From: Candidatus Omnitrophota bacterium | Lineage (GTDB): Bacteria > Omnitrophota > Gorgyraeia > Gygaellales > Profunditerraquicolaceae | Assembly: GCA_028715785.1 (NCBI GenBank) | Contig: JAQURC010000002.1 | Location: 8,402 to 72,401, forward strand | Direction: 5' to 3' | DNA length: 64,000 nucleotides | Part shown: piece after piece, positions 1-52,100 of the stretch | Layout: each line of letters begins with the position of its first letter | Position numbering within the stretch: the first letter of the stretch is position 1 | The notes under the pieces: generated by a model | Databases searched by the model: none | What the model saw: only the letters and a program-made list of their open reading frames with translations | Told to the model about the DNA's origin: nothing | Program-made: the position numbers and the translations under genes

Positions 1-1
1 G

Positions 2-127: not shown

Positions 128-135
128 GGCATCGA

Positions 136-1617: not shown

Positions 1618-1723
1618 TGCATAATGTGTAATGCGGGTGTAAAGTAACTATGCGCAACGGAAAAACAAAGATTTTTGCATTACACATTTAACATTACACA
1701 AAAATAACAAGGGAGGTATAAAA

Positions 1724-1975: not shown

Positions 1976-2030
1976 GGAATTGCGCGCCTGCCTACCGGCA
2001 GGCAGGGGCAGCCCTTTTGGGCAAAGGAGC
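1961..2030 (+). repeat. gene-proximal hairpin+SD element, variant copy with extra palindrome (CCTGCCTACCGGCAGGCAGG) upstream of yajC; overlaps rpsP stop
   Basis: ACCCCGCGCTTATAAGGAATTGCGCG...GGCAGCCCTTTTGGGCAAAGGAG; rpsP ends ...NNTPRL* with TAA inside the element loop. Confidence 0.65.
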
Positions 2031-2035
2031 TTAAT

Positions 2036-2314
2036 ATGCCACAGCAAAACGCAGTTAACCCGATAGTTCAGCTTTTACCGTTAGCTTTGATCTTTGTTAT
2101 TTTTTATTTTCTGTTGATCCGCCCGCAGAAGCAAAAGGAAAAAGAGCACCAGAAAATGCTGGCGGGAATTAATAAAAATGACGAGGTGGTAACTTCAGGC
2201 GGGATACACGGGGTGGTAGTCAATGTAAAGGAGAAGACCTTGACGCTGCGCATCGATGAAAATGTGAAGATGGAGATTGAAAAGAACAGCGTCGCTTATA
2301 TCAAAAAGCCTTAA
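2036..2314 (+). CDS. yajC: preprotein translocase subunit YajC
   Basis: 92 aa, single TM helix then FYFLLIRPQKQ motif; directly upstream of secDF. Confidence 0.8.
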   Translation: MPQQNAVNPIVQLLPLALIFVIFYFLLIRPQKQKEKEHQKMLAGINKNDEVVTSGGIHGVVVNVKEKTLTLRIDENVKMEIEKNSVAYIKKP

Positions 2315-2342
2315 AATATATCAGAAAAACAGGAGCTAAATA

Positions 2343-4544
2343 ATGGAAAGAAAGCTGACCTATAAAATATTGCTTATCTTAGGCGTAATTGGATTGTGCG
2401 CATATTATACCTTTCCCCTGAGTAAGCATATTAACCTGGGCCTGGATTTGCAGGGAGGGATGCATCTGTTGCTTAAAGTTGATACCAGTCATCTTGAGGG
2501 AAAGGCAAAATTAGATGCCTGTGACCGGGCAGTCGAGGTTATCCGTAACCGCATCGATGAGTTCGGGGTCAGGGAGACTTCCATTCAAAAGCAGGGCGAG
2601 GATGAAATTGTAGTGCAGCTTCCCGGGGTTACTGACCGGCAGCGCGCCATTGATTTAATCGGTAAAACCGCAATGCTTGAATTTAAAGTTGTCTCCAATG
2701 ATGCGGATAAGCTCAAGGAGTCAATCGCCGGCACGATCCCTGAAGGTTATGAATTAAAATATTCTCAGGAAGAGAATGAGCCGTTATTGCTTGAGAAGAA
2801 AACCGTTTTAGTCGGGGATTCTTTAACCGATGCTTCGGTGCGTTTTGATCAAAGCCAATTCAGCGAGCCGATTGTTGCTTTACAGTTTAACGCCGCAGGC
2901 TCCAAGAAATTTGCCGAAATAACCGCGGCAAATGTAGGAAAGCGCCTGGCGATTGTCCTGGATGGAAAGGTGCAGTCAGCGCCCAGGATCAGGGAGGCGA
3001 TCCCTTCAGGGGAGGCGGTAATTACCGGCAGGTTTGATGTTCAAACTGCCCAGGACCTGGCCTTAGTTTTAAGGGTAGGGGCCTTACCTGCGCCAATGCA
3101 TATTGAGGAGGAAAGGACAATCGGCCCGTTATTGGGGCAGGATTCGATAAGTAAAGGAGTTAAGGCCTGCATTATCGGCATCGGCTTAGTTTTTATTTTT
3201 ATGGCTGTTTATTACCTTTTAGCCGGGATCGTTGCCAATATCGCCCTTATGCTTAACCTGCTTATAATCTTAGGATCGTTGGGCATGCTTCCTTTAATAT
3301 TTCCCGGCATATCCGCCACTTTGACTCTTCCGGGGATTGCCGGTATCGCTCTTTCTTTAGGTATGGCAGTAGATGCCAACGTCTTGATTAATGAGCGCAT
3401 AAGAGAAGAGTTGGCCGCGGGCAGAAGTTTACGCCTGGCAATAACCAACGGATATGGGAGGGCTTTTAGCGCCATATTCGATTCAAACCTTACTACCTTA
3501 ATTGCCGCGTTCCTTTTGTTCCAATTTGGCACCGGGCCCATAAGGGGTTTTGCGGTTACCTTAACCATCGGTTTGATTGCCAGCATGTTTACCGCTATTA
3601 TCGTAACCAGGGTAATCTTTGAACTCCTTTTAAATTCGGGAATCCTGAAATCATTGCCGATGTTAAAGTTGATCAAGGATACAAAAATAGATTTTATTAG
3701 CAAAAGAAAGATTTTTTATGCGCTTTCTATTGTAGTTACGGTAGTAGGGTTGGTTTCGTTCTTAATGAAAGGGAGCAAGGCTTACGGTATAGATTTTTCC
3801 GGAGGGCAGCTCCAGGAGTATATGTTTAAGGCCCCGCCTTCTGTTGATAAGGTTAGAAAGGTTTTAGACCAGATAAATCTCAGTAACGCTTCCATACAGC
3901 AGTTCAAAGACAACCCGAATGTTTTACTGATCAGGACCTCTGAAGATAAGAATGAGATATTGACTAAGGAACTAAAACAAAGTTTTCCCCAGGATGATAT
4001 TCAAGTTTTAAGGATCGAGCGCGTTGGCCCTGTAGCGGGAAAACACTTAAGGGATAAGGCGGTGCTGGCGCTTTTCTGGGCGTTGGCAGGGATCCTTATT
4101 TACGTTGCTTTCAGGTTCAAGCATTTTAACTTTGCGATCGCCGGGATTATCGCTCTTCTTCATGATGTTTTAGTTTCTTTGGGCATGCTTTCCCTGACCG
4201 GCAGGCAAATAGACCTTTTAAGCGTCACTGCTTTTTTAACTATTGCCGGCTATTCAATAAATGATACGATTGTTATTTATGACCGGGTGCGGGAAAATGC
4301 CAAGTTTTACCGCAAATTGAATCTTTATGAATTGATAAACCTAAGCGTGAATCAATGTTTGGGGAGGACGCTGCTTACCAGCGGAGTTACCTTGTTGTGC
4401 GTTTTGGCAATATTTTTATACGGTGGGGAGATCCTCGGTAATTTTTCTTTTGCTTTGTTAGTTGGTTTTTTCTGCGGAGCTTATTCTACGGTTTATATCG
4501 CTTCACCGCTGGTGCTTGCTTGGAGCCGCAAAAGCTCTAAATAA
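2343..4544 (+). CDS. secDF: protein translocase subunit SecDF (fused SecD-SecF)
   Basis: 733 aa; SecD periplasmic domain plus two six-TM halves; yajC-secDF synteny. Confidence 0.9.
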   Translation: MERKLTYKILLILGVIGLCAYYTFPLSKHINLGLDLQGGMHLLLKVDTSHLEGKAKLDACDRAVEVIRNRIDEFGVRETSIQKQGEDEIVVQLPGVTDRQRAIDLIGKTAMLEFKVVSNDADKLKESIAGTIPEGYELKYSQEENEPLLLEKKTVLVGDSLTDASVRFDQSQFSEPIVALQFNAAGSKKFAEITAANVGKRLAIVLDGKVQSAPRIREAIPSGEAVITGRFDVQTAQDLALVLRVGALPAPMHIEEERTIGPLLGQDSISKGVKACIIGIGLVFIFMAVYYLLAGIVANIALMLNLLIILGSLGMLPLIFPGISATLTLPGIAGIALSLGMAVDANVLINERIREELAAGRSLRLAITNGYGRAFSAIFDSNLTTLIAAFLLFQFGTGPIRGFAVTLTIGLIASMFTAIIVTRVIFELLLNSGILKSLPMLKLIKDTKIDFISKRKIFYALSIVVTVVGLVSFLMKGSKAYGIDFSGGQLQEYMFKAPPSVDKVRKVLDQINLSNASIQQFKDNPNVLLIRTSEDKNEILTKELKQSFPQDDIQVLRIERVGPVAGKHLRDKAVLALFWALAGILIYVAFRFKHFNFAIAGIIALLHDVLVSLGMLSLTGRQIDLLSVTAFLTIAGYSINDTIVIYDRVRENAKFYRKLNLYELINLSVNQCLGRTLLTSGVTLLCVLAIFLYGGEILGNFSFALLVGFFCGAYSTVYIASPLVLAWSRKSSK

Positions 4545-4611: not shown

Positions 4612-6507
4612 ATGTTATTTAAATCACTCAAACTATATCCTAATCAAGATATTAACTTAGAAACTCTTTCTGAGGCCCTGGTTGATTTTGGTTACCGCAG
4701 GCAGAAGATGGTTTCCGCAGAAGGCGATTTTAGCCGCCGCGGTTCGATTATCGATATTTTCCCGGCCTCCTTTGAATTACCCATCCGTATTGAATTAGGT
4801 AATGAAAAAATCATTTCCATCAAAACTTTTAATCCTTCCAGCGGCCAGGCCCTTTGGCAGCATAATATCGTTATTGTCCTGCCGCATAAAAAGTCCTCAG
4901 GCGCCAGAGGCCGCGTATTTAACGAAAAGTTCCCTTTAAAAAATTTCGTAGATTTGAATATCGGTGATTTTGTAGTGCATAACCAGCATGGCATAGGAAG
5001 GTTCCTGGGCATGCAGAAGATCAAGGCAGGAAGCGGCCTTAAGGACCACCTGGTGATTGAGTATGACCGCAATGAAAAACTGTATGTGCCGGTTGACGCC
5101 ATGCACCTGGTGCAGAAGTATATTGCTTTTCACGCGGGGCGGCCTAAACTCTACCGTTTAGGCAATAAGCAGTGGCAGAGGGTAAAGGCGAAGGCGCGCA
5201 AGGGCGTTCAAAAGCTGGCCTGGGAACTATTGAGTCTGCAGGCAATGCGCCTGGCTTCTAAGGGGTTTAAGTTTTCCGCGGATACCGATTGGCAGGCTGA
5301 TTTTGAAAAGACATTTCCGTATGAAGAAACCCCCGATCAGGCCAAGGCAATGGCAGAGGTTAAGCTCGATATGGAATCTTTTAAGCCCATGGACAGGCTG
5401 CTTTGCGGGGATGTGGGGTATGGAAAGACCGAAGTAGCGATGCGGGCGGCATTTAAATCGGTGATGGACAATAAACAGGTTGCTTATCTTGTCCCGACCA
5501 CTATTTTAGCCGAGCAGCATTATAAGAATTTCACCGGCCGGTTGGCTAATTTTGCGGTAAATGTTGCGATGCTTTCCCGTTTTAAAACCATCAGGCAGCA
5601 AAAAGAAATTATCGAAGGGTTAGCCGACGGAAGCGTGGATATAGTTATCGGCACGCACCGGCTGCTTTCGGATGACGTGGTTTTTAAGGATTTAGGTTTG
5701 GTTATCGTTGATGAAGAGCAGCGGTTTGGAGTTGAGGCTAAAGAAAAGCTGAAAAAACTTAAAACTACCATCGATGTCCTGGTTTTAACTGCCACACCGA
5801 TCCCGCGCACCTTGTATATGAGTTTAATGGGGGCAAAAGAAATTTCGGTAATCAATACCCCGCCGCAAAATAGGTTGCCTATCAAGACGGTTGTGGTAGA
5901 ATATGATGCGGATTTGGTAACCCAGGCCATTAAGCGGGAACTGGCGCGCCGCGGCCAGGTGTTTTTTCTGCATAACCGTATCCTGGATTTGGAAAAAATC
6001 CGGGATAAGATCGCAAAGAATTTGCCGGCAGGCGCGAGGATTGCCATGGCCCATGGCCAAATGAATTCTTCTTTGCTTGAGCGGATCATGTCGGATTTTA
6101 TTTCCGGCAATATCGATGTTTTGGTCTCAACCATGATTATTGAATCCGGCATCGATATACCAAATGCCAATACCATTATCGTAAATAACGCGCAGATGTT
6201 TGGATTATCTGATCTGCATCAATTACGCGGCAGGGTGGGCAGGTTTAACCGGTCCGCCTACGCGTATTTTATGGTTCCTGGCAATATGGTTTTGGAAGCC
6301 GATGCCAAAAAACGGCTGCAGGCGATAGAGGAATACACCGAGCTGGGGGCCGGTTTTAATATTGCCATGCAGGATCTGGAGATCCGCGGGGCCGGCAACA
6401 TCCTGGGACAAGAGCAGCACGGATTTATCGTGGCTGTGGGGTTTGACCTTTATTGCAGATTATTAAAAGAAGCGGTGGTCAATTTTAAGAAAGCAGGGGT
6501 ATTTTAA
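4612..6507 (+). CDS. mfd: transcription-repair coupling factor Mfd, short form (RNAP-interacting domain plus RecG-like translocase; lacks the UvrB-homology N-terminal module)
   Basis: 631 aa; [14 protein letters not shown] (Mfd RID motif), DEAD/DEAH helicase motifs ([35 protein letters not shown]). Confidence 0.8.
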
Positions 6508-7418
6508 TGAAGCGCATAATTAGTTTTTCGGCCATTGCAATTACGCTTATTTTTTTTATCCCCTTTCTTTACGCGCAGGATAAGGTGGTGGCGATAGTGA
6601 ACAATGAAATTATCACGCAAAAAGACCTCAATGATTTTTTGAATTATATACGCCTGCAGTATTCACGCGAAGTTAAAGGAAAGGCTTTGGCGGAAAAAGT
6701 AGAAGCGATGCGGCAGGATCTATTACAGCGTTTAATCGAAGACCGGATTATACTTGCGCAGGCAAAGATCGATAAGATAAATATCGATTCCAACAGGGTA
6801 AAAGAAAAAATTAATGAGATTAAAAAGCGTTACCGGTCGGATTCGGAAATGGAACGTGATTTGGCTAAACAGGGATTAGTGCAGGCGGATTTGGAAAATA
6901 AGATCCGGGAGCAGATGCTCACCTATAGCATTATCGAGCAGAAGGTGCGCAGTAAAGTAGTGGTTTGGCCGGAAGAAATCACCAGCTTTTATAACCAAAA
7001 TAAGCAGCAGTTTTTAAAACCTGAGGAGAGGATCCTCACGATTATTATCTTGCCCAGTGAAGATTTGGCTAAAACCGTCAGTTATCAGTTGAGGATTGGG
7101 TCAAAATTAGAGGAGCTTGCCGCAAAATACCAGTTTACCACCGATAAGCTTATTGCCTGGCAGGGGCAGCAGCTGCGCAGCGAGATCGAAGAAACGGTAT
7201 TTAAATTGGGAATAGGGGAAGTATCTAATCCGGTAAAAATCGACGAGCAATATTATATCTTCAAGTTAGATGATATTGCCGGAAGCCGGCAATTGAGTTT
7301 GGATGAGGCGCAGGCTAATATCCAGGCTTATTTATTCGATAAGAAACTGCAGGATGCCCTGGCCAAATGGTTAAATGAACTTAAAAAACAATCCTACATT
7401 AAAATCCTCGACAATTAG
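6507..7418 (+). CDS. surA: SurA-like periplasmic chaperone / PpiC-type peptidyl-prolyl isomerase
   Basis: Signal peptide, SurA N-domain, degenerate parvulin domain; conserved surA-pdxA-ksgA synteny. Confidence 0.7.
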   Translation: MKRIISFSAIAITLIFFIPFLYAQDKVVAIVNNEIITQKDLNDFLNYIRLQYSREVKGKALAEKVEAMRQDLLQRLIEDRIILAQAKIDKINIDSNRVKEKINEIKKRYRSDSEMERDLAKQGLVQADLENKIREQMLTYSIIEQKVRSKVVVWPEEITSFYNQNKQQFLKPEERILTIIILPSEDLAKTVSYQLRIGSKLEELAAKYQFTTDKLIAWQGQQLRSEIEETVFKLGIGEVSNPVKIDEQYYIFKLDDIAGSRQLSLDEAQANIQAYLFDKKLQDALAKWLNELKKQSYIKILDN

Positions 7419-8367
7419 AGTCGGTATTACTATAGGCGACCCTTCGGGAATCGGACCGGCCGTTACCCTTAAGGCTCTTGAAATATTAAAAGGTAAGGCC
7501 GGTTTTACGGTTATCGGTAACCGCCTCGTGTTGGCTAAGGCGGCTAAAATCTTAAAAATACGCTCCTTGCCTGCGGAGTTAATCGATTTAAATAATGTTA
7601 ATCCGGGGAATTTTACATTCGGCAGTTTAAGCGCGCAAAACGGCCGGGCTTCTTTGGAATACCTCGATGCGGCTTTGGATTTGTTTAAGAAAAATAAAAT
7701 TGATTGTCTGGTTACCTGCCCGGTCTCAAAAGAAGCGATCAACCTGGCAGGAGCTGAATTTTCCGGCCACACAGAATATCTTGGTAAAAAGACAGGCTGT
7801 AAGGACCTGGTCATGCTGCTGCTTAACGCTAAATTAAAATTCAGTTTAGTTACCAGGCACGTGGCGCTTAAGGATGTCTGCGGATTGCTGGACCGTAAAG
7901 TTTTAAGAACCAATATCCTAAAGACAATCAGGGGCCTGGAGTCTTTATTCCTGATAAAAAAACCAAGGCTGGTTGTCTGCGGGGTTAACCCTCATGCCTC
8001 GGATAACGGAGTAATCGGTAAGGAGGAAGGGAGGGTTATTACGCCGGTTGTAAAAAGCCTGAAGAAAAAAATCAGGGGCGTTTCCATAACCGGACCGCTT
8101 TCTGCGGATGTGGCGATATCACAGGCCGCAGGCGGAAATTTTGATTGTGTAATTGCCGCTTATCATGACCAGGCGCTTATTCCTTTAAAGTTAACGGATT
8201 TTGACAGCGGGGTAAACCTTACCCTTGGCCTTCCTTTTGTGCGCACCTCTCCTTTGCACGGGACAGCTTTTGATATCGCCAAAAAGCCCGCTATGGCCGA
8301 TCCCGGCTCGCTGGTGGCTGCCATAAAACTTGCCATAAAATGCGCATCAAACCAAAAAAAAGCTTAG
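7375..8367 (+). CDS. pdxA: 4-hydroxythreonine-4-phosphate dehydrogenase PdxA
   Basis: VGITIGDPSGIGP N-terminal motif, GPLSAD, AYHDQALIP; overlaps surA end (start may be later). Confidence 0.8.
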   Translation: MNLKNNPTLKSSTIRVGITIGDPSGIGPAVTLKALEILKGKAGFTVIGNRLVLAKAAKILKIRSLPAELIDLNNVNPGNFTFGSLSAQNGRASLEYLDAALDLFKKNKIDCLVTCPVSKEAINLAGAEFSGHTEYLGKKTGCKDLVMLLLNAKLKFSLVTRHVALKDVCGLLDRKVLRTNILKTIRGLESLFLIKKPRLVVCGVNPHASDNGVIGKEEGRVITPVVKSLKKKIRGVSITGPLSADVAISQAAGGNFDCVIAAYHDQALIPLKLTDFDSGVNLTLGLPFVRTSPLHGTAFDIAKKPAMADPGSLVAAIKLAIKCASNQKKA

Positions 8368-12202: not shown

Positions 12203-12229
12203 CCCCGCGCTTAGCGGAATTGCGCGGGG
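12203..12229 (+). repeat. gene-proximal hairpin element, partial copy (hairpin 1 only: CCCGCGC-TTAGCGGAATT-GCGCGGG)
   Basis: Sequence family alignment; tandem with the next copy. Confidence 0.6.
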
Positions 12230-12244: not shown

Positions 12245-12294
12245 CACCCCGCGTTTATAAGGAATTACGCGGGTGTGTCCTACTGACAAGGAGG
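12245..12294 (+). repeat. gene-proximal two-hairpin+SD element (copy upstream of rplL; hairpin 2 variant GTGTCC-TAC-TGACA)
   Basis: CACCCCGCGTTTATAAGGAATTACGCGGGTGTGTCCTACTGACAAGGAGG then ATG. Confidence 0.7.
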
Positions 12295-23145: not shown

Positions 23146-23196
23146 ACACCCCGCGCTTATAAGGAATTGCGCGGGTGTGCCCCTAGGGGCAAGGAG
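23146..23196 (+). repeat. gene-proximal two-hairpin+SD element (upstream of tuf)
   Basis: CACCCCGCGCTTATAAGGAATTGCGCGGGTGTGCCCCTAGGGGCAAGGAGG. Confidence 0.75.
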
Positions 23197-27428: not shown

Positions 27429-27761
27429 ATGATCTCAAGAGCGGAAGGAAAATTTTTAAGGATTTCACCCAGTAAGGTGCGCATCGTTGCCGATCTTATC
27501 CGCGGCAAGGATGCCCTCCAGGCGCAAAGTATCCTGCTGCATTTGAATAAAAGGTCAAAAGAGTACCTGATAAAAATATTGAAATCCGCGATCGCTAACG
27601 CTAAAGTCAAGGGTTTTGCGGCCGAGAAATTATATGTTTCCAAGATTGTTTGTAATCCCGGGCCGATGTGGAAAAGATTTAAGGCCGCTGCTTTTGGCCG
27701 GGCCGCGTCAATAGTTAAACGTACGGTGCATATAAAAATTGAATTGGATTTAAAAGCTTAG
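27429..27761 (+). CDS. rplV: 50S ribosomal protein L22
   Basis: MISRAEGKFLRISPSKVRIVADLIRGK...; start corrected from ORF-track 27294 to in-frame ATG just after the rpsS stop. Confidence 0.93.
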   Translation: MISRAEGKFLRISPSKVRIVADLIRGKDALQAQSILLHLNKRSKEYLIKILKSAIANAKVKGFAAEKLYVSKIVCNPGPMWKRFKAAAFGRAASIVKRTVHIKIELDLKA

Positions 27762-27811
27762 CACCCCGCGCTTATAATGTATTGGGCGGGTGTGCCCTTT
27801 TGGGCAAGGAG
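27762..27811 (+). repeat. gene-proximal two-hairpin+SD element (upstream of rpsC)
   Basis: CACCCCGCGCTTATAATGTATTGGGCGGGTGTGCCCTTTTGGGCAAGGAG. Confidence 0.75.
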
Positions 27812-30878: not shown

Positions 30879-30929
30879 ACACCCCGCGCTTATAATGAAT
30901 TGCGCGGGTGTGCCCGTGTGGGCTAGGAG
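30879..30929 (+). repeat. gene-proximal two-hairpin+SD element (upstream of rpsH)
   Basis: CACCCCGCGCTTATAATGAATTGCGCGGGTGTGCCCGTGTGGGCTAGGAG. Confidence 0.75.
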
Positions 30930-31332: not shown

Positions 31333-31381
31333 ACCCCGCGTTTATAAGGTATTGCGCGGGTCTGCCCTTGCGGGCAAAGGA
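31333..31381 (+). repeat. gene-proximal two-hairpin+SD element (upstream of rplF; stem G-U variant, weak SD AAGGAAA)
   Basis: ACCCCGCGTTTATAAGGTATTGCGCGGGTCTGCCCTTGCGGGCAAAGGAAA. Confidence 0.7.
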
Positions 31382-36390: not shown

Positions 36391-36440
36391 CACCCCGCGC
36401 TTAAAAGGAATCGCGCGGGTCTGCCCGCCTGGGCAAGGAG
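36391..36440 (+). repeat. gene-proximal two-hairpin+SD element (upstream of rpsM)
   Basis: CACCCCGCGCTTAAAAGGAATCGCGCGGGTCTGCCCGCCTGGGCAAGGAG. Confidence 0.75.
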
Positions 36441-36861: not shown

Positions 36862-36910
36862 CACCCCGCGCTAATTTGAATTGCGCGGGTGTGTGTTCGT
36901 ACACAAGGAG
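36862..36910 (+). repeat. gene-proximal two-hairpin+SD element (upstream of rpsK; hairpin 2 fully covaried TGTGT-TCGT-ACACA)
   Basis: CACCCCGCGCTAATTTGAATTGCGCGGGTGTGTGTTCGTACACAAGGAG. Confidence 0.75.
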
Positions 36911-37991: not shown

Positions 37992-38984
37992 ATGGGGATA
38001 AAATGGAGAGATTTTCAGTTTCCTAAGAAACTTGATTGTGATGAGTCGACATATACCGATACATACGGAAAATTTCAGGCGGCGCCTTTTGAAAGAGGAT
38101 ATGGGGTAACCCTGGGTAACTCTTTAAGAAGGGTGCTGCTTTCATCCATCGAAGGCAGCGCGGTTACGGCAATTAAAATTGCCGGAGTCTCCCATGAATT
38201 TTCCACTATACCCGGCATACTTGAGGATGTGCCGGAGATCATCTTAAATATCAAAAGCCTGGTTTTAAATTCTCACTCCAAAATCCCCAAAACAATTTAT
38301 TTAAAAGCGGATAAAAAAGGGGAGGTTAAGGCCAAGGATATCCAGGCGGATGAGACAATCGAGATCATTAATCCTGAGCTGCATATCGCCACCCTTACTA
38401 AGGATACCAAACTTAATATCGAAATGGAGGTATCCCGCGGCAGAGGTTATGTTCCGGCCGAAGCGAATAAAAAAGAAGATAAAGTCGCCGGTTTCATCGC
38501 CGTGGATTCGATATTCACGCCGATTAAAAAGATCAACTATTACGTGGAAAATACCCGCGTAGGCCAGCGGACGGATTACGATAAGCTGATCCTTGAGATC
38601 TGGACCAATGGCAGCATTAATCCTAAGGATGCCCTGCTCTATGCTTCTAATATTTTACAAAGGCATTTGGATATTTTTGTAAGTTTTGGCCAGCTTCCTG
38701 AAGATGTCGCTGAAGAGGAGCCGGAGATGACCAAGGAGGACGCGGCTTTGTATGAAAAATTAAGGCTGCCGATTTCCGAGCTTGAGCTTTCAGTGAGAAG
38801 CTCCAACTGTTTAAGGGAAGCCGGAATTAAAACTATCGCTGATCTGGTTAAGAGGACTGAAGATGAGATGCTCAATTTTAAGAATTTCGGCAAGAAGTCT
38901 CTTACCGAAATTCAGGAGCTGCTTATGGGTATGGGGGTCAGTTTAGGGATGCAGGTTGATCCCAAGAAAATGAAGAAGGGATAA
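37992..38984 (+). CDS. rpoA: DNA-directed RNA polymerase subunit alpha
   Basis: 330 aa; NTD dimerisation and CTD motifs (SVRSSNCLREAGIKTIADLV). Confidence 0.93.
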   Translation: MGIKWRDFQFPKKLDCDESTYTDTYGKFQAAPFERGYGVTLGNSLRRVLLSSIEGSAVTAIKIAGVSHEFSTIPGILEDVPEIILNIKSLVLNSHSKIPKTIYLKADKKGEVKAKDIQADETIEIINPELHIATLTKDTKLNIEMEVSRGRGYVPAEANKKEDKVAGFIAVDSIFTPIKKINYYVENTRVGQRTDYDKLILEIWTNGSINPKDALLYASNILQRHLDIFVSFGQLPEDVAEEEPEMTKEDAALYEKLRLPISELELSVRSSNCLREAGIKTIADLVKRTEDEMLNFKNFGKKSLTEIQELLMGMGVSLGMQVDPKKMKKG

Positions 38985-38990: not shown

Positions 38991-39557
38991 ATGAGACACG
39001 CAAAGAAAAGACTGCAGCTTGGCCGTTTTACCAGTTGGCATGATGCGACAATAAAGAGCTTAGCCAAAAATATGATCATTTGCCAGAGCATTAAAACTAC
39101 TTTGACCAGGGCCAAAGCCAGCAAGCAGATGGTCGATAAACTTATAACCCTGGCTAAGAAAAACACGCTTTTTGCCCGCAGGCAGGCGCAGAAAGTGCTC
39201 GGTGAACATAAAATAGTCAATCTGCTTTTTAATGAAATCGGGCCGCGTTTTGCTAACCGCAGCAGCGGTTTTACCAGGATTATCAGCATCGGCAAACGCC
39301 GCGGCGATAACGCAGAGATGGTTATTTTTGAGCTTACGGAATTAAAGAAAAAAGAACCTAAAAAAACCAAATTAGCCAAAGAAGCCAGGCCGCAGGCGAC
39401 CCAGGCAGAAGAGGTTGTTGAAGAAAAAATTACGCAGGAACAGAAAAAGGAACCCAAGGCGGTAACTAAAGAAGCTCCGGTTGATCAGAAGAAGCCGCAG
39501 AAGAAATTTATGGGGGGCTTGCGGACCATATTTAGAAAGAAAAGTGATTCTTTGTAA
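38991..39557 (+). CDS. rplQ: 50S ribosomal protein L17 with Lys/Glu-rich C-terminal extension
   Basis: MRHAKKRLQLGRFTSWHDATIKSLAKN... L17 family. Confidence 0.93.
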   Translation: MRHAKKRLQLGRFTSWHDATIKSLAKNMIICQSIKTTLTRAKASKQMVDKLITLAKKNTLFARRQAQKVLGEHKIVNLLFNEIGPRFANRSSGFTRIISIGKRRGDNAEMVIFELTELKKKEPKKTKLAKEARPQATQAEEVVEEKITQEQKKEPKAVTKEAPVDQKKPQKKFMGGLRTIFRKKSDSL

Positions 39558-39574: not shown

Positions 39575-40750
39575 ATGAAGATAGATACTCGGCTTGCTGA
39601 GCGCCTAAAAAAAATCCATCCTTCCTCGACGCTGGCGATAACCTCTAAAGCTAAAAAGCTTAAAAGCGAAGGCAAGGATATCGTTAATTTTGCCGCCGGT
39701 GAGCCGGATTTCGATACGCCGGATTTTATAAAGGAGGCGGCAATTGCGGCAATTACTTCCGGATTCACCAAGTATACCCCCACCACAGGCACCCCCGAAC
39801 TAAAAAAACTCATTTGTCAGAAATTCAAAAAAGATAATTCATTAGAATATGCGCCGGATCAGATCATAGTTTCTAACGGGGCAAAGCACAGTATTTATAA
39901 CGCCCTGATGGTGCTTTTAAACCGCTCTGATGAAGCGCTTATCCCTTTGCCTTATTGGGTCAGTTATCCTGAAATGGCCGGCCTCTGCGAGGCAAGCGCC
40001 CGTTTCATAAAGACGACTGCCGCAAATAATTTTAAAATTTCCGCAAAAGACCTCCAGAAGCACATTACCACTAAAACCAAAGTACTTATTCTCAATAGCC
40101 CGTCAAACCCGGCCGGGTCGGTTTATAGCCGCCAGGAGCTTGAAGAGATAGCTAAAATCTGCGTGGATAAAAATATTTTTGTAATCAGCGATGAGATTTA
40201 CGAGAAGATTACTTTTGACGGCTTAAAGCATAATTCGATTGCCAGCTTCAATAAAGATATTTATAACCTCACCATTACGGTTAACGGCCTGTCTAAAAGC
40301 CATTCCATGACCGGCTGGCGTATCGGCTATCTGGGCGCGCCAAGCGATATTGCCAATGCCATTTCAAACCTGCAGGATCATTCAACCTCCAATCCTAATT
40401 CCATCGCCCAGAAAGCAGCGGTGGCTGCGTTAAGCGCGCCGGAGGATTTTACGCATGAATTGTGCCGGGAGTTTGCCAAAAGGAGGGATTACCTGGCCGC
40501 AAGGCTAAAGGGGATTAAGAATTTGAATTTTTCTCTGCCGCAGGGCGCGTTTTATATGTTTTGCGATATTTCTAAAACCGGCCTTGATTCATTGACTTTT
40601 TCCAGGCGTCTGCTTGAGGAAGAATATGTCAGCCTTATTCCCGGAATAAGTTTCGGCATGGATGACCATATAAGGATAAGTTTTGCCACAAGCGTCGAAG
40701 AACTGCAAAAAGGCATGGATAGGATAGAAAAGTGGATAACAAAACTATGA
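39575..40750 (+). CDS. class I pyridoxal-phosphate aminotransferase (aspartate aminotransferase-like)
   Basis: 391 aa; SNPSNPAGSVYS and GLSKSHSMTGWRIGY (Lys-PLP motif). Confidence 0.8.
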   Translation: MKIDTRLAERLKKIHPSSTLAITSKAKKLKSEGKDIVNFAAGEPDFDTPDFIKEAAIAAITSGFTKYTPTTGTPELKKLICQKFKKDNSLEYAPDQIIVSNGAKHSIYNALMVLLNRSDEALIPLPYWVSYPEMAGLCEASARFIKTTAANNFKISAKDLQKHITTKTKVLILNSPSNPAGSVYSRQELEEIAKICVDKNIFVISDEIYEKITFDGLKHNSIASFNKDIYNLTITVNGLSKSHSMTGWRIGYLGAPSDIANAISNLQDHSTSNPNSIAQKAAVAALSAPEDFTHELCREFAKRRDYLAARLKGIKNLNFSLPQGAFYMFCDISKTGLDSLTFSRRLLEEEYVSLIPGISFGMDDHIRISFATSVEELQKGMDRIEKWITKL

Positions 40751-42003
40751 GCCAAGCGACTATAGCCGAAAAAATATTAAGCAAGCATGCCGGTAAAACC
40801 TTGCGCGCAGGAGATTTTGCGGTCTGCAAAATTGATTTTGCTTTTGGCCAGGATGGAACCTCCTCGATAATTATCGACCGGATAAAAGAGCTGGGGGTAA
40901 AAAAAATAAAAACCAAGTTTTGCATGGTAATTGACCATAGCGCCCCCAGCCCCAGCGAAGGGGTTTCCCGGGTGCATAAGAAGATGCGCGATTTTTCGCA
41001 GGATTTTAATACGGAAATTTTCGATATCGGCTGCGGGGTTTGCCATCAGGTTATCCCTGAATCGGGAAATGTTTTACCCGGAGATTTAGTTTTAGGGGCA
41101 GATTCCCATACCTGTACCTATGGGGCACTGGGGGCATTCTCTACGGGTGTGGGTTCTACGGATCTGGCGATAGCTTTAGCTACGGGAAAGAATTGGTTTA
41201 AAGTCCCGGCAACCGTGAAAATTATCGTTACGGGAAAACTTCCCAAAGGGGTTTTTGCCAAGGATATAATTTTGCATATAATCGGTAAATTAAAAAGTGA
41301 CGGGGCTACCTATAAAGCAGTTGAATTCTACGGCCCGGCGATTAATAATATGGGTATGGACGGCCGGTTCACTGTTGCCAATATGCTGGTTGAGATGGGG
41401 GCAAAGACAGGCTTTCTGCCGGTTGATGATAAAACCGCTGCCTGGTTAAAATCCAGGGTTAGCGGCAGCCGGCGCATTGAACATATTACCGCAGACAAAG
41501 GGGCTCTTTATGAGAATGTTTATGAGTTTGATATTTCAAAACTTGAACCGGTGGTTTCTATGCCCCATAGCGTAGATAATACCGCGCAGGCATCGACTTT
41601 AAAAAAGGTAAAAATAAACGAAGCTTTTTTGGGCACCTGTACTAACGGCCGGATCGATGATTTGAAGGTTGCGGCAAAGATCTTGAATAAACGCAAGGTT
41701 TCTCCGCAAGTTAAATTAATTATTGCTCCGAGTTCCCGCAGCGTCTATCTGGAGGCTTTAAAACTCGGCCTGGTTGAGATATTTATCAAAGCCGGGGCAG
41801 TGATTGTGGCTCCGGGCTGCGGCCCTTGCGTGGGCACGCATAACGGTATTCCCAGCGACGCAGAAGTGGTGATCTCAACCGCAAATCGTAATTTTAAAGG
41901 CAGGATGGGAAATCCTTCGGCTTTTATTTATCTGGCTTCTCCGGCTACGGTGGCGGTTTCGGCGCTTAAAGGTTACATTAGTGATCCCAGGGATTATTTC
42001 TAA
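40732..42003 (+). CDS. leuC: aconitase-family hydro-lyase large subunit, small type (3-isopropylmalate / homoaconitate dehydratase LeuC-like)
   Basis: 423 aa; Fe-S ligand context GTCTNGR, CGPCVG; paired LeuD-like gene downstream. Confidence 0.75.
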   Translation: MDNKTMSQATIAEKILSKHAGKTLRAGDFAVCKIDFAFGQDGTSSIIIDRIKELGVKKIKTKFCMVIDHSAPSPSEGVSRVHKKMRDFSQDFNTEIFDIGCGVCHQVIPESGNVLPGDLVLGADSHTCTYGALGAFSTGVGSTDLAIALATGKNWFKVPATVKIIVTGKLPKGVFAKDIILHIIGKLKSDGATYKAVEFYGPAINNMGMDGRFTVANMLVEMGAKTGFLPVDDKTAAWLKSRVSGSRRIEHITADKGALYENVYEFDISKLEPVVSMPHSVDNTAQASTLKKVKINEAFLGTCTNGRIDDLKVAAKILNKRKVSPQVKLIIAPSSRSVYLEALKLGLVEIFIKAGAVIVAPGCGPCVGTHNGIPSDAEVVISTANRNFKGRMGNPSAFIYLASPATVAVSALKGYISDPRDYF

Positions 42004-42004: not shown

Positions 42005-42053
42005 CACCCCGCGCTTATAAGGAATTGCGCGGGTGTGCCCGTGTGGGCAAGGA
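42005..42053 (+). repeat. gene-proximal two-hairpin+SD element (upstream of pilT)
   Basis: CACCCCGCGCTTATAAGGAATTGCGCGGGTGTGCCCGTGTGGGCAAGGAGG. Confidence 0.75.
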
Positions 42054-42060
42054 GGAATTG

Positions 42061-43107
42061 ATGGAAATTCGCGATTTACTTTTAATGTGTATCGAGAAGG
42101 ACGCTTCGGATCTGCATGTCACGGAAAATGAACCGCCGATCCTGCGCATTGACGGCAGGTTACTGCGCACAAACCTGGAGAAATTAGATAAGCCAAGTTT
42201 AAAAAAAATGATCCACAGCGTTCTTTCCAATTCCCAGAAAGAGGTTTTTGAGCGCGAATTGGAGCTTGATTTTTCGCTTGCCTTGCCGGATCTGGACCGT
42301 TTCCGCGTAAATGTCCATCTGCAGAAGGGCGCGGTGGAAGCGGCTTTTCGCCGTATCCCGATAGAGATACCGACTGTGGCAAAATTAGGCCTGCCTAAGA
42401 TTATAAGCGATTTAGCGCGCAAGCCCAACGGTTTAGTTTTGGTAACCGGGCCTACAGGTATGGGCAAGACCACTACTTTGGCGGCGATGATCGACCTTAT
42501 TAACAGCGAACGGGAATGTCTGATTACCTGCATCGAAGACCCGATCGAGTTTATCTATAACAATAAAAAGAGCATCGTTAAACAGCGCGAGGTTTATTCG
42601 GATACGCATTCTTTTGCCGAAGCCTTGCGTCATGCCCTGCGCCAGGATCCCAATGTTATCGTAGTCGGTGAAATGCGCGACTTAGAAACTATATCCACCG
42701 CTTTAACCGCGGCGGAAACCGGCCATCTTGTTTTAGCGACCTTGCATACGCCGGATGCCCCGCAAACTATCTCCAGGATCATCGATGTTTTCCCGCCGCA
42801 TCAGCAGACGCAGGTCAAATTGCAGCTTTCCGATTGTTTGCAGGGGGTAATTTCGCAGCTTCTGCTTCCGCACGCATCAGGCAAAGGAAGGGTGTTGGCT
42901 ACCGAGATCATGGTGGCAACCTCCAGTATCCGCAATCTTATCCGCGAGCAGCAGATAGAGCAGATCCCGACGATGATGCAGACCGGTTTGCAATACGGCA
43001 TGAATACTATGGACAGCTGCCTTAAAGATTTGACCCAAAAAGGCCTGATCACTTTGGATGTGGCTATGTCTAAAGTAAAGAATAGGGAAGAGTTTAAACA
43101 GCTATGA
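42061..43107 (+). CDS. pilT: type IV pilus retraction ATPase PilT-family
   Basis: 348 aa; Walker A GPTGMGKTTT, PilT family core; start corrected from 42025 (TTG within repeat). Confidence 0.85.
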   Translation: MEIRDLLLMCIEKDASDLHVTENEPPILRIDGRLLRTNLEKLDKPSLKKMIHSVLSNSQKEVFERELELDFSLALPDLDRFRVNVHLQKGAVEAAFRRIPIEIPTVAKLGLPKIISDLARKPNGLVLVTGPTGMGKTTTLAAMIDLINSERECLITCIEDPIEFIYNNKKSIVKQREVYSDTHSFAEALRHALRQDPNVIVVGEMRDLETISTALTAAETGHLVLATLHTPDAPQTISRIIDVFPPHQQTQVKLQLSDCLQGVISQLLLPHASGKGRVLATEIMVATSSIRNLIREQQIEQIPTMMQTGLQYGMNTMDSCLKDLTQKGLITLDVAMSKVKNREEFKQL

Positions 43108-43607
43108 GTATTGAAGGCAAAAGCGTAAAACTCGGGGATAATATAAATACGGATTTTATCATTTCCGGAAGGTATAAGTTTGCCATTACCGATATGAAGG
43201 AGCTGGCCAAACACATTATGGAGGATATCGACCCGAATTTTCCGCAGAAGATTGTTCCGGGAAAAACCATTATCGTCGCCGGCAATAACTTTGGCATGGG
43301 TTCAAGCCGCGAACAGGCCCCGTTGGTAATCAAAGAGGCCGGGGTTGTTGCGGTCCTATCCCCGCAATTTGCGCGCATATTTTTTCGCAATAGCTTTAAT
43401 ATCGGGCTGCCTTTGATTGAAACTGACACCAGTAAAATTGAGGAGGCAGACCGGCTCCAAATCGATTTAGATAAAGGTTTGGTAAAAAATCTCACCAAAG
43501 GCATTGATTTAGAGATTAAGCCTCTGCCTAAATTCATGCAGGACCTTTTAAGCGAAGGCGGCATAATTAATTATTACAAAAAACACGGAGAACTACCTGC
43601 GTTATAA
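43104..43607 (+). CDS. leuD: aconitase-family hydro-lyase small subunit (LeuD-like)
   Basis: 167 aa aconitase C-terminal swivel domain; 4-nt overlap with pilT. Confidence 0.75.
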   Translation: MSIEGKSVKLGDNINTDFIISGRYKFAITDMKELAKHIMEDIDPNFPQKIVPGKTIIVAGNNFGMGSSREQAPLVIKEAGVVAVLSPQFARIFFRNSFNIGLPLIETDTSKIEEADRLQIDLDKGLVKNLTKGIDLEIKPLPKFMQDLLSEGGIINYYKKHGELPAL

Positions 43608-43689: not shown

Positions 43690-44778
43690 ATGGTTCATAA
43701 AATAACTCTTATTCCCGGCGACGGTATCGGATATGAAGTTTCACTTGCGGCTAGGCGGTGCATCGAGGCCACGGGTGTTAATATCGAGTGGGAGAACGTG
43801 CTTGCCGGTTCCGATGCCCTGGATAAAACCGGGGAGCTCCTGCCGCAGAGCGCGCTGGATTCAATCAAGAAAAATAAGGTTGCCCTCAAAGGGCCGATCA
43901 CCACACCCATTGGAACCGGGTTTCGTTCGGTAAATGTGGCGATCAGGCAAGCGTTGGATCTTTACGCCTGCCTGCGTCCGGCTAAAAGTTATTTAGGGGT
44001 AAATAGCCGTTTTAAGGACATTGACTTGGTTATTGTCAGGGAAAACAGCGAAGACCTTTACGCCGGCATAGAATTTGAAGAGGGTAAGCCTGAAACTAAG
44101 AACCTGATCGCCCAGATTCAAAAGGACACCAAAAGGCTGATCCGCCGGGATTCCGGTATAAGCATCAAACCAATATCTAAATTCGCATCGGAGAGGATCG
44201 TAAAATTTGCCTTTGAGTATGCTTTAAAAAATAAACGTAAGAAAGTTACCTGCGTGCATAAGGCAAATATCATGAAATTTACCGACGGTTTATTTTTAAA
44301 AGTTGCCCGGGAGGTTGCCCAAAAGTATGCCGGAAAAATAATTTTTGAGGAAGCAATCGTGGATAATATGTGTATGCAGCTGGTGCAGAAGCCGCATAAT
44401 TATGATGTCTTGGTGCTGCCTAATCTTTACGGGGATATCATTTCTGACCTTTGCGCCGGGCTCATCGGCGGCCTGGGAATTGCACCCGGCGCCAATATCG
44501 GCGCGGAGCTGGCGGTTTTTGAAGCTGTGCATGGCTCTGCTCCGAAATATAAAGGGAAGAACAGAGTTAATCCCACGGCGATGATCTTGTCGGGGGCCTT
44601 GATGCTGCGTTATATTAATGAAGAAAAAGCTGCGGACAGCTTAGAAGAAGCGGTAAAGCAGGTGATTGCCGAAGGAAAATCCGTAACCTATGATTTAAAA
44701 GCCGATCCGCTTGACCCCGGCGCTGTTGGTACCGCGCAGATGGCTGATGCCATTATTGACAAGCTAAAAAGAATATAA
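43690..44778 (+). CDS. isocitrate/isopropylmalate dehydrogenase family protein (NAD-IDH-like)
   Basis: 362 aa; IPGDGIG, LDLYACLRP, NLYGDIISD motifs. Confidence 0.75.
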   Translation: MVHKITLIPGDGIGYEVSLAARRCIEATGVNIEWENVLAGSDALDKTGELLPQSALDSIKKNKVALKGPITTPIGTGFRSVNVAIRQALDLYACLRPAKSYLGVNSRFKDIDLVIVRENSEDLYAGIEFEEGKPETKNLIAQIQKDTKRLIRRDSGISIKPISKFASERIVKFAFEYALKNKRKKVTCVHKANIMKFTDGLFLKVAREVAQKYAGKIIFEEAIVDNMCMQLVQKPHNYDVLVLPNLYGDIISDLCAGLIGGLGIAPGANIGAELAVFEAVHGSAPKYKGKNRVNPTAMILSGALMLRYINEEKAADSLEEAVKQVIAEGKSVTYDLKADPLDPGAVGTAQMADAIIDKLKRI

Positions 44779-44782: not shown

Positions 44783-45703
44783 ATGAAGATTACCGTAATC
44801 GGCGCAGGAAACGTGGGGAGCCTGACTGCAATGCGCATCGCCCAGGATGGACTGGGCGATGTTTTGCTTATTGACATCGTCAAGGGGCTGGCGCATGGGA
44901 AGGCTTTGGATTTAGAGGATGCCCGGCCGCTCCTAAAACATAATTATAATATTCGAGGCAGTGATGATATCGCCCAGCTTAAGGATTCGGATATCGTGGT
45001 GGTTACCGCCGGCCTGGCGCGTAAACCCGGGATGAGCCGCGAAGAATTGCTGGCAAAGAATGCCCAGATTTTAAAAGGAGTGTGTTTGAATATAAAAGAG
45101 CTGGCCAGGAATGCGATTGTTATAATCGTCACCAATCCTTTGGATATTATGACTTTTTATGCCCTGAAAATTACCGGTTTTAAGCCCGGCAGACTTTTTG
45201 GCATGGGGATTAGTTTGGATACTGCCCGGTTTATCAATTTAATCGCCGGCGAATTAAATTTACCGGTTACGGATATTGAGGCATTAGTCATCGGCGCCCA
45301 CGGTGAAGGCATGCTTCCTTTGCCGGCTTTGGCTAAAGTTAAGGGTGTGGCGTTAGATGAATTTATCGGCGACGATAAGATTGGCGTATTAGTCAGCCGC
45401 ACGGTTGCCAGGGGCGCTGAAATCGTTGCCAACCTTGGAACAGGGAGCGCGTTTTTTGCCCCGTCAGCGGCAATCGCGGCAATAGTCAAAACAATAGTCA
45501 AGGATGAAAAACGCATTATTGGGTTGTGCAGTTATCTTAACGGAGAATACGGCATCAAGAATAGCTGTATAGGCGTTCCCTGCCGTTTAGGCAAAAACGG
45601 CATTGAACAGATTATTCAACTGGACCTTTCGCCGGAAGAGAAAAACAGGCTGACCAAATCCGCGCAGCTTGTAGCTGCTGCGGCAGCGCAATTATTGGCT
45701 TAA
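44783..45703 (+). CDS. mdh: malate dehydrogenase (LDH-like MDH)
   Basis: GAGNVG Rossmann motif; GLARKPGMSREEL with Arg specificity residue. Confidence 0.85.
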   Translation: MKITVIGAGNVGSLTAMRIAQDGLGDVLLIDIVKGLAHGKALDLEDARPLLKHNYNIRGSDDIAQLKDSDIVVVTAGLARKPGMSREELLAKNAQILKGVCLNIKELARNAIVIIVTNPLDIMTFYALKITGFKPGRLFGMGISLDTARFINLIAGELNLPVTDIEALVIGAHGEGMLPLPALAKVKGVALDEFIGDDKIGVLVSRTVARGAEIVANLGTGSAFFAPSAAIAAIVKTIVKDEKRIIGLCSYLNGEYGIKNSCIGVPCRLGKNGIEQIIQLDLSPEEKNRLTKSAQLVAAAAAQLLA

Positions 45704-45718: not shown

Positions 45719-47002
45719 ATGTATGATCTGGCTGTTATTGGAGCAGGCTGGGCAGGTTTTAACGCTGCCCTAAAAGCAAAAGAGCTGGGCCTGAAGGTTT
45801 GCCTTATTGAATCCGGCCGGATCGGCGGAACCTGCCTTAATTTCGGATGTATTCCCACCAAAGCATTAATCGTTTGCGCGAAAATATTTCAGCTGGCTAA
45901 AAAAGCACCGGGTTTTGGGGTAGAGCTGGATAATCCGCGGTTTAATTTCACAAAAATCCAGGAAAGAAAAAATAAAATCGTCCGGGAGCTTGCCCAGGGG
46001 ATGCGCGGCAGGCTTGCCGGAATCGATCTTATCGAATCCGTTGCCCGGATCAGTTCTCCTAATGAAATAAAAGCCGATGGCCGCCTGATCAACAGTAAGT
46101 TTATACTTATTTCAACCGGCAGTCATTCGGTTCTATTGCCCGGGTTAAAGATTGATCAAGAAAAAATAATTTTAAGCGACCAAGCCCTGGCTTTATCGGA
46201 AATTCCCCAATCTTTATTAATTATCGGAGGAGGAGTAATTGGCTGTGAATTCGCCAGTCTTTTTTCTATTTTAGGCAGCAAGGTGGCCATTATTGAAAAG
46301 ATGCCGTTTCTTTTGCCGGGAGAAGACATGGATATAGCCAGAAAGATAGAAGTTATTTTTAAGAAAAAAGGAATCCAGGTAACTTGCGGCGCGGATATCG
46401 CTAATTTCAATTTGGAAGATTATTCCCGTATTTTAGTTTGCGTAGGCAGGACCGCCAATACCGCCGGTTTAGGTTTGGAAAACTTAGGCGTAGAATTGGC
46501 AAATAACAGGATAATCGTTGATGATTATCTTCAGAGCAGCGTTGCCGGTATATATGCGGCAGGAGATTGCGCCTCTAAGATAATGCTTGCTCATTATGCT
46601 GCTTATCAGGGGAGAGCGGCGGTTGAAAATATGGTTTCAAATAATAAGCATAAGGCGGATAATAAGATTGTGCCTGCCTGCATATTCACCGAGCCGCAGA
46701 TTGCCAGCGTCGGCTTAAATGAAGAGAACGCCCTGGCTGCCGGCTTATCGGTTAAAGTCCATAAATTTGATTTTCGCGCCAATGCCATGGCGCGCATTAT
46801 CGATGAGGCCGAAGGATTCATCAAGATTATTAGCAACCGGCAAACTCAGGAAGTGATCGGCGCCAGCATAATCGGTCCGCTTGCCAGCGAGTTAATCTCC
46901 ATTCTCTCTATGGCAATTTCAGCGCATTTGACTGTTGACCAGATTCGCGCGATGATATTGGCGCATCCCACTCTTTCTGAATCAATATATGAAGCTGTCT
47001 AA
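45719..47002 (+). CDS. lpd: dihydrolipoyl dehydrogenase
   Basis: 427 aa; GGTCLNFGCIPTK redox disulfide, FAD/NAD folds, C-terminal His-Pro-Thr-xSE. Confidence 0.85.
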   Translation: MYDLAVIGAGWAGFNAALKAKELGLKVCLIESGRIGGTCLNFGCIPTKALIVCAKIFQLAKKAPGFGVELDNPRFNFTKIQERKNKIVRELAQGMRGRLAGIDLIESVARISSPNEIKADGRLINSKFILISTGSHSVLLPGLKIDQEKIILSDQALALSEIPQSLLIIGGGVIGCEFASLFSILGSKVAIIEKMPFLLPGEDMDIARKIEVIFKKKGIQVTCGADIANFNLEDYSRILVCVGRTANTAGLGLENLGVELANNRIIVDDYLQSSVAGIYAAGDCASKIMLAHYAAYQGRAAVENMVSNNKHKADNKIVPACIFTEPQIASVGLNEENALAAGLSVKVHKFDFRANAMARIIDEAEGFIKIISNRQTQEVIGASIIGPLASELISILSMAISAHLTVDQIRAMILAHPTLSESIYEAV

Positions 47003-47007: not shown

Positions 47008-47056
47008 CACCCCGCGCTTAGAGGAGTTGCGCGGGTGTGCCCTGGTGGGCAAGGAG
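47008..47056 (+). repeat. gene-proximal two-hairpin+SD element (upstream of lipoyl-domain gene)
   Basis: CACCCCGCGCTTAGAGGAGTTGCGCGGGTGTGCCCTGGTGGGCAAGGAGG. Confidence 0.75.
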
Positions 47057-47062
47057 GTTACC

Positions 47063-47299
47063 ATGATGAAAGTGGTGCTGCCGGAATTAGGGGAGGGTAT
47101 TACTAAGGCTACCGTGTCGTATTGGTTTTATAAGGACGGGGAAAAGGTAAACCGGAATGATGACCTGGTGGAATTGACTACCGATAAAACTACCTTTAAC
47201 CTGCCCAGCCCCTGCACAGGGGTAATTTCCGAAATAATGTATAGCGAAGGCGATAGCGTGGATGTGGGCCAGACATTGGCGGTAATTAACGAAGCCTGA
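47063..47299 (+). CDS. free-standing biotin/lipoyl attachment domain protein (78 aa)
   Basis: MMKVVLPELGEG...ELTTDKTTFNLPSPCTGVISEI (lipoyl-lysine context DKT); start corrected from 47027. Confidence 0.7.
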   Translation: MMKVVLPELGEGITKATVSYWFYKDGEKVNRNDDLVELTTDKTTFNLPSPCTGVISEIMYSEGDSVDVGQTLAVINEA

Positions 47300-51854: not shown

Positions 51855-51867
51855 AATTAGACAATTT

Positions 51868-52100
51868 GGTAAACTTATAGGTTAAGGGAAATCCGTAAAT
51901 ACGGATGCGGTCCCGCCGCTGTAAGGGCAGACGAAAACTGCATAAGTCACTGTCTTTAGTGTTAAAGACGGGAAGACGCAGTAAGTAGGTTAGAAGCCCA
52001 AGCCAGAAGACCTGCCTATATAAAGAATGGTAATGCCTCGTGGAATGGGTTAAGAAATATTTGGGTGCAACCCGTCAGCAACTGTGGCGGGTTTTTTGTT
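51868..52100 (+). promoter_or_regulatory. cobalamin (B12) riboswitch with intrinsic-terminator expression platform
   Basis: AAGGGAA, CCCGCCGCTGTAAG, GTCACTG (B12 box), GGGAAG, GACCTGCC conserved blocks; terminator ACCCGTCA-GCAACTG-TGGCGGGT + TTTTTTGTTT at 52069-52100. Confidence 0.6.

Follow-up and report, generated by a model that had tools for sequence, protein, structure and literature searches.

Why should the genes for the two subunits of an aconitase-type dehydratase be separated by one for a pilus retraction motor? The question arises from a 64,000-nucleotide stretch of DNA from a Candidatus Omnitrophota bacterium (assembly GCA_028715785.1, contig JAQURC010000002.1, positions 8,402 to 72,401; hereafter the window), in which pilT (42061–43107) separates the hacA/leuC-like gene for the large subunit (40732–42003) from the hacB/leuD-like gene for the small subunit (43104–43607), all three on the plus strand. 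An earlier note on this DNA had pointed to the arrangement and had offered two explanations, namely that PilT has a role outside pili and is co-expressed with the metabolic module, or that a repeat element directly upstream of pilT mediated its insertion. Our analysis leads to a different answer. The ATPase is, judged by its family score, its motifs and its closest solved structures, a canonical PilT, and its gene is probably an ordinary passenger that became fixed in a housekeeping operon long ago and is held in place by its coupling to hacB, while the repeat element is a recent, lineage-specific addition over an old gene order.

The evidence that carries this answer comes from the relatives. 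A search with PilT as query found the order rpoA-rplQ-aspC-hacA-pilT-hacB-icd-mdh(-lpd), in the same orientation throughout, at 23 distinct genome or assembly loci, which comprise Omnitrophota metagenome-assembled genomes (MAGs), metagenome assemblies and Ca. Susulua stagnicola, and the entire 20-gene neighborhood is collinear across the same loci. Over these 23 loci the identity to the window falls from 91% to 64% for PilT, and to 62% for RpoA, 37% for L17 and 55% for HacA; PilT and RpoA show about the same degree of conservation in the cluster. An independent search anchored on HacB returned 80 metagenome contigs, eight of which end within 400 nt of hacB and are uninformative, and in all of the others (72/72) pilT lies directly 5' of hacB; in none of these contigs does hacA adjoin hacB. 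The placement of pilT between the two dehydratase genes is confirmed in the sequence and recurs on about 100 independent contigs, for which reason an assembly artefact was rejected as the source of the gene order. PilT loci from outside the Omnitrophota (at most 56% identity) have no hacA or hacB neighbors. The subunit genes of leuCD and hacAB are adjacent in the textbook arrangement, and it is from this background that an ancestral adjacency is assumed here; the HacB-anchored scan gave only loci that contained PilT or were truncated, and so yielded no outgroup with adjacent hacA and hacB. Two of the loci with the pilT-containing order can be assigned to classes from tables that accompany Seymour et al. 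(2023). One of them (L013) bears the NCBI name 'Omnitrophica bacterium GWA2_41_15', and the MAG GWA2_41_15 is placed there in the class Gorgyraia; the other (L167, Ca. Susulua stagnicola) belongs to the class Velamenicoccia. The order is accordingly older than the divergence of these two classes, at the least. No description of the hacA-pilT-hacB order was found in Omnitrophota papers or in full-text literature searches. What is new here is the operon architecture and the depth of its conservation, whereas the components are ordinary; no new machine or mechanism is revealed, and the finding is an old gene-order peculiarity of modest interest, by which much of the Omnitrophota is cleanly marked.

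The identity of the ATPase was established by several comparisons that agree with each other. The protein of 348 residues matches the PilT/PilU family model TIGR01420 with 462 bits against a cut-off of 319.1, over profile positions 2–343 of 343, and scores far under the cut-off of each of the models for TraJ, DotB, PilB, GspE, ComGA, FlaI, TrbB and VirB11. It has exactly the sequence of a protein annotated as PilT in a Candidatus Omnitrophota MAG (NCBI MDD5465107.1), and its best 120 homologues are 345–348 residues long with at least 84% identity, all of the named ones being PilT of Omnitrophota or Omnitrophica. In a search of solved structures the highest scores were obtained with PilT of Geobacter (386 and 379 bits; PDB 5ZFQ and 6OJX), P. 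aeruginosa (346 bits; 3JVU) and Aquifex aeolicus (343 bits; 2EWV and 2GSZ) and with 5FL3 (309 bits), all above PilU (240 and 229 bits), DotB (130 bits) and PilB (about 110 bits). The match to the solved PilTs is full-length, covering residues 4–348 of a protein of similar length, and includes all of the motifs: Walker A GPTGMGKTT (residue 130), Asp box IEDPIEF (158), Walker B VIVVGEMRD (199), His box TGHLVLATLHT (220) and the C-terminal SIRNLIRE (289), which is of the AIRNLIRE type. In sequence, the Walker A motif of the Omnitrophota proteins differs in that its usual Ser is replaced by Met, Val or Thr (GPTGMGKTT as compared with GPTGSGKST). The genomic setting also differs: the Omnitrophota gene lies inside a central-metabolism operon linked to ribosomal-protein genes, between dehydratase subunits and with its stop codon overlapping the hacB start. 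PilU (PDB 9N32, 10MY group), the PilT-dependent accessory retraction ATPase, belongs to the same TIGR01420 family and has the same fold, but the window protein scores lower with it (240/229 bits against 343–386 for PilT) and keeps the xxRNLIRE motif, which the PilU-like paralogues found at other loci have lost. Among the embedded orthologues the signature reads (A/G/S)(I/V)RNL(I/V)RE, and it is intact, together with the ATPase boxes, in all 21 that were examined. The Omnitrophota PilTs form a single clade within the PilT set in a neighbor-joining tree of 91 PilT-family sequences, drawn without support values. By the tree and the structures alike the protein groups with PilT and not, as the earlier note had allowed for, with a clade of non-PilT secretion ATPases, and retraction of type IVa pili by a PilT-type hexamer is most likely its function, as predicted from these similarities.

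The earlier note had described the gene as an orphan, and within the window this description holds. No other pilus genes were found there in Pfam scans of the non-ribosomal open reading frames (ORFs) of at least 100 residues, and the prepilin motif G-[FM..]-T-L-x-E is absent from all six frames of the 64 kb. In the relatives as well, there are no pilus genes within 6–8 kb of the embedded pilT; the possibility that they would show the same order next to a full pilus operon was thus borne out for the order and not for the operon. A pilT gene sited apart from the pilus assembly genes is normal in the family, the pilT-pilU pair of P. aeruginosa being a separate locus. Of the KEGG numbers K02652, K02653, K02654, K02662 and K02669 we assume that they denote pilB, pilC, pilD, pilM and pilT, respectively. 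The first four are listed along with K02669 for two genomes in the part of the PMC10066038 source data available to us, and the same paper reports type IVa pilus genes in 135/141 genomes of Velamenicoccia, 38/40 of Gorgyraia, 19/23 of Omnitrophia and 11/13 of Aquiviventia, and expression of type IVa pili by V. archaeovorus (PMC10066038).

The position of the locus within its operon bears on how the order could have been kept. The rpoBC and S10-spc-alpha ribosomal-protein clusters terminate in rpoA (37992–38984) and rplQ (38991–39557), all long ORFs from about 10 kb to 63 kb are on the plus strand, and only small gaps separate the successive genes downstream of rplQ. Scans for promoters and terminators showed no enrichment over chance (25 sites against 18.7, and 16 against 14.7), with no intergenic terminator from rplQ to lpd. 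A sigma-70-like site, TTGCCA-16-TATAAT, with 11 of 12 matches was noted on the plus strand at 41255–41282, inside hacA and about 780 nt 5' of pilT, and is not interpretable given that the number of promoter-like sites in the region is that expected by chance. The probable start of pilT is the ATG at 42061, five bases past the Shine-Dalgarno sequence AGGAGG at 42050–42055. The TTG at 42025, which opens the mechanically called ORF, was rejected as a start; the relatives all begin with MEI or MEL at the same ATG. At its other end the TGA stop codon of pilT (43105–43107) overlaps the ATG of hacB (43104–43106) in an ATGA of 4 nt at 43104–43107, read directly in the sequence and as the earlier note had described it. 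Translational coupling to hacB, which that note had taken from the overlap, is likely from this geometry, and co-expression with the metabolic module is likewise likely, as far as it can be inferred.

Taken together, these features suggest the following course of events. While the phylum was still at an early stage of its radiation, and before Gorgyraia and Velamenicoccia diverged at the latest, pilT would have become fixed between the dehydratase cistrons of an aspC-hacA-pilT-hacB-icd-mdh-lpd operon that appears to follow without interruption on the ribosomal-protein supercluster at its rpoA-rplQ end. To judge from the gene spacing, pilT would be co-transcribed with these housekeeping genes and PilT made constitutively, and hacB would be translated by termination-reinitiation at the ATGA overlap. 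Mutual dependence could then freeze the order, pilT needing the upstream transcription and hacB needing the ribosomes that come from pilT. The rest of the type IVa pilus machinery would be encoded elsewhere in the genome. If this is correct, the locus suggests that these very small, host-dependent bacteria express a pilus retraction motor as a housekeeping gene, which fits an attachment lifestyle, and it would be a natural example of translational coupling locking an unrelated gene into the operon of a two-subunit enzyme over a long time.

The junctions on either side of pilT differ in the relatives in a way that is relevant to this proposal. Of 92 loci examined for the pilT/hacB junction, 49 have a 4-nt overlap, 13 more have the two genes no more than 10 nt apart, and 22 have a gap of over 50 nt. 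The hacA-pilT spacer, on the other hand, can be as short as 9 nt or as long as 263 nt (median 19), most relatives having 9–20 nt that bear a Shine-Dalgarno sequence only, as compared with the 57 nt of the window, which contain the repeat element. Where the cluster has broken, the break falls between hacA and pilT (two loci) and never between pilT and hacB: in L155 and L163 (each 1–4504) a pilT-hacB-icd-mdh-lipB block stands apart from both hacA and the ribosomal cluster, with genes for a ParA-like protein, a nitroreductase and a '23S rRNA-intervening sequence protein' upstream of pilT in the former and an RHS-repeat gene in the latter, and both must either have the gene for the large subunit at another place or lack it. 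This asymmetry, tight at pilT-hacB and variable at hacA-pilT, fits a pilT that depends on upstream transcription and a hacB that depends on the ribosomes of pilT. It also bears on the simpler proposal of a frozen accident, by which pilT landed once and has persisted because rearrangements are rare in small genomes, coupling and shared transcription being irrelevant. The collinearity of the 20-gene neighborhood speaks for a generally high conservation of synteny, and the 22 of 92 junctions with gaps above 50 nt imply that coupling is not obligatory; nevertheless, an accident would not by itself lead one to expect a hacA-pilT junction that varies and has broken twice next to a pilT-hacB junction that is nowhere interrupted and shows the overlap in 53% of loci, nor that pilT stays in several lineages where the genes flanking it were lost or replaced, and we regard it as doubtful.

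The same linkage could instead reflect a functional coupling, in which an extra or different role of PilT, tied to the dehydratase or to a tricarboxylic acid (TCA) branch module, keeps the order; in the forms proposed, PilT would assist HacAB as a chaperone, would regulate it, or would connect pilus retraction with the energy or carbon state. In its favor, the adjacency of pilT and hacB is found on 72 of 72 contigs and persists in the broken clusters of L155 and L163, the overlap of stop and start is the majority state, and PilT is about as conserved as RpoA. Loss of the dehydratase, however, has not displaced pilT. Four loci (L018, L020, L021 and L022) are without hacA and hacB, and yet have aspC-pilT followed by icd and/or lipB, and the loss in L018 is secondary because its sister, L035, possesses hacAB; pilT has thus been kept in its slot in at least two lineage groups that lost both subunits. 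Moreover, neither PilT-HacB fusions nor length changes were seen among the 240 homologues listed, all of the PilT signatures are intact with nothing distinctive as compared with other PilTs, pilus genes are near-universal in the phylum (PMC10066038), and literature searches gave no link of PilT to aconitase-type enzymes. A role of PilT outside pili, as put forward in the earlier note, consequently finds no positive support in a canonical PilT whose gene remains where both subunit genes are gone, and functional coupling is unlikely. The specific suggestions that PilT dosage is slaved to the TCA-branch operon, with retraction (for attachment or predation) tracking the metabolic state, or that PilT binds the dehydratase, are improbable as well; if true, such a metabolic tie would be without precedent, no other pilus motor being known to form part of central metabolism.

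The hacAB-less loci span 4759–8205 (L018), 4790–7062 (L020), 4–2700 (L021) and 4723–7797 (L022) of their sequences. Their PilTs have short C-terminal extensions (351–361 residues), and some of these lineages also lack icd or mdh.

The remaining proposal concerns the repeat element, which occupies 42005–42055 on the plus strand, position 42005 being the first base of this element and not the start of pilT. It consists of a G+C-rich hairpin of 9 bp with a 12-nt loop (42005–42035; CACCC.GCGC / GCGCGGGTG) and a second hairpin of 5 bp with a tetraloop (42036–42049; TGCCC-GTGT-GGGCA), followed by the Shine-Dalgarno sequence of pilT; the predicted fold contains both hairpins at −26.4 kcal/mol (z = −1.4). 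The element, which was assigned to the repeat families D1–D3, is real: its core pattern CCCGCGY-N8-16-RCGCGGG occurs nine times in the window against an expectation of 0.01, always on the plus strand. With degenerate copies included there are 11, directly 5' of secDF, rplL (two), tuf, rpsC, rpsH, rplF, rpsM, rpsK, pilT and the lipoyl-protein gene, at 1956–2027, 12204–12228, 12248–12273, 23150–23175, 27758–27811, 30883–30908, 31335–31360, 36394–36419, 36865–36889, 42008–42033 and 47011–47035, all on the plus strand. A consensus fold of the 11 copies has 10 predicted pairs, four of which keep their pairing through two-sided changes in at least one copy. The element has no T-run and is therefore not an intrinsic terminator. 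No Rfam family matches it. Like REP/BIME-type repeats and intercistronic stabilizer hairpins, it is short, structured, repeated, strand-specific and placed between the cistrons of operons; it differs from them in always abutting a downstream Shine-Dalgarno sequence, in its fixed two-hairpin layout, in its confinement to one lineage and in the lack of an Rfam match. Its position suggests a role in the RNA, perhaps as a hairpin that aids processing or stability of the transcript, or as one that insulates the initiation of translation.

A recent insertion of pilT mediated by this element, which would have carried the gene in or served as a site of recombination, would account for the copy immediately 5' of pilT. 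That copy is the only one at pilT, however, and the other side of the gene has none; Pfam scans of the window showed no transposase or integrase in the vicinity. The G+C content rises only modestly at this point, to 0.504 at 42–43 kb against about 0.39–0.50 elsewhere, and is as high at 61–62 kb. The 10 other copies of the element stand, without exception, 5' of the ribosome-binding sites of unrelated genes. The marks of a mobile insertion, that is flanking repeats or a target duplication, a recombinase and a patchy distribution, are absent from this locus. Most decisively, the gene order is present without the element at about 100 loci, down to 64% PilT identity and mostly with spacers of 9–20 nt, and the core pattern has no match in 166 related Omnitrophota loci. 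The insertion put forward in the earlier note is thereby refuted, with a residual probability that we consider negligible. The double hairpin with its Shine-Dalgarno sequence (50 nt) was acquired later, in this lineage, and had no part in placing pilT. The hacA-pilT spacer appears to be a hot spot for the gain and loss of intercistronic elements: different structured or AT-rich sequences occupy it in L007 (5880–6000), L008 (5930–6000) and L001 (7843–8000), that of L007 being a longer element that resembles the one in the window.

Several points weigh against our account of an old passenger locked by coupling. Co-transcription and coupling are both inferred from the geometry of the genes, and the very tight linkage of pilT and hacB is compatible with a functional tie as well. 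In some relatives the spacers that flank pilT are 50–260 nt long and have room for promoters; the operon may thus be organized differently in different lineages. The PilT tree is a neighbor-joining tree without support values, and the breadth of the gene order is established for the two classes Gorgyraia and Velamenicoccia, and not for Omnitrophia or Aquiviventia. That the remaining pilus machinery is present, and whether this PilT is the sole copy, are matters for which we rely on the phylum-level literature, by which the former is most likely. Finally, the best PilT at three Omnitrophota loci (L028, L029 and L030) is the second gene of a tandem pair, with a PilU-like paralogue first. These pairs, at 4894–7047, 4767–7089 and 38–2114, respectively, have neither hacAB nor pilus genes near them, and two of the three are at 63% G+C. 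No pilus operon was found at L028–L031, where the neighbors are glycosyltransferase, CBM9, TPR and RecN-like genes only.

The dehydratase itself belongs to the archaeal-type LeuCD/HacAB group. The large subunit of about 420 residues (Pfam Aconitase, 7.8e-103) passes NF001614 (555.8 bits, cut-off 385), TIGR01343 (544.9, cut-off 385.7) and TIGR02086 (539.6, cut-off 410.15), and the small subunit of about 165 residues (Pfam Aconitase_C, 1.5e-14) passes TIGR02087 (179.4, cut-off 108.95), TIGR02086 and TIGR02087 being the models of that group. In contrast to the group, the subunit genes in the window are not adjacent, and their neighbors are not leuA/leuB or lysine genes. The equivalog models all fell short of their cut-offs (LEU2 484/610.65, HacA_Meth 454/550, leud 178/245.85 and HacB2_Meth 180/230). 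The labels 'LeuC-like' and 'LeuD-like' used in the earlier note are thus acceptable, although by these scores the proteins would fall outside LeuCD and HacAB in the strict sense. The neighboring icd-like, mdh, lpd and aspC genes suggest a role in a TCA branch, in which the enzyme may be used like an aconitase. In the visible stretch of the PMC10066038 source data, citrate synthase (K01647) is listed for one genome and K01681 and K01682 are not (PMC10066038). In the small subunit, residues 21–29 (window 43164–43190) carry a segment SGRYKF(A/S)I that is invariant in 10 of 10 aligned Omnitrophota sequences. We take this site to be the position of the substrate-specificity loop (YLRT / YLVM) of the small subunits of methanogen homoaconitase and isopropylmalate isomerase. 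The segment may mark a different substrate, for example aconitate.

The other genes of the operon, all on the plus strand, are of familiar types. The first metabolic gene 3' of rplQ, and a constant, syntenic upstream neighbor in the related loci, is aspC-like (39575–40750) and encodes an aspartate aminotransferase-like class I/II aminotransferase (Pfam PF00155, 2.2e-79), for which the top NCBIfam model is that of the archaeal-type aspartate aminotransferase at 447 bits, under its cut-off of 550. Downstream of hacB, the icd-like gene at 43690–44778 (Pfam Iso_dh, 1.6e-106) encodes a member of the isocitrate/homoisocitrate/isopropylmalate dehydrogenase family that is nearest to isocitrate dehydrogenase models (NF006529, 403.8 bits, under the cut-off of 510). 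It is followed by mdh for malate dehydrogenase at 44783–45703 (Ldh_1_N and Ldh_1_C; NF004863, 370.5 bits against a cut-off of 283) and lpd for dihydrolipoyl dehydrogenase at 45719–47002 (TIGR01350, 436.9 bits against 408.8). A further copy of the repeat element, recognized by the core pattern, spans 47008–47056 3' of lpd, and the lipoyl-carrier gene with its Biotin_lipoyl domain lies at 47027–47299.

Two features elsewhere in the window were also recorded. A cobalamin riboswitch (RF00174, 88 bits) at 51862–52033 on the plus strand lies 5' of genes for a BtuF-like binding protein, a FecCD permease and an ABC ATPase, and these are followed by cobalamin salvage genes (CobU, CobT-like, CobS and a histidine phosphatase) and a TonB-dependent receptor. 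At 4612–6507, also on the plus strand, an Mfd/TRCF-like protein of 631 residues combines UvrB-interaction, CarD/TRCF RID, DEAD and Helicase_C domains; this is about half of the usual length of Mfd, and the protein may be a compact form.

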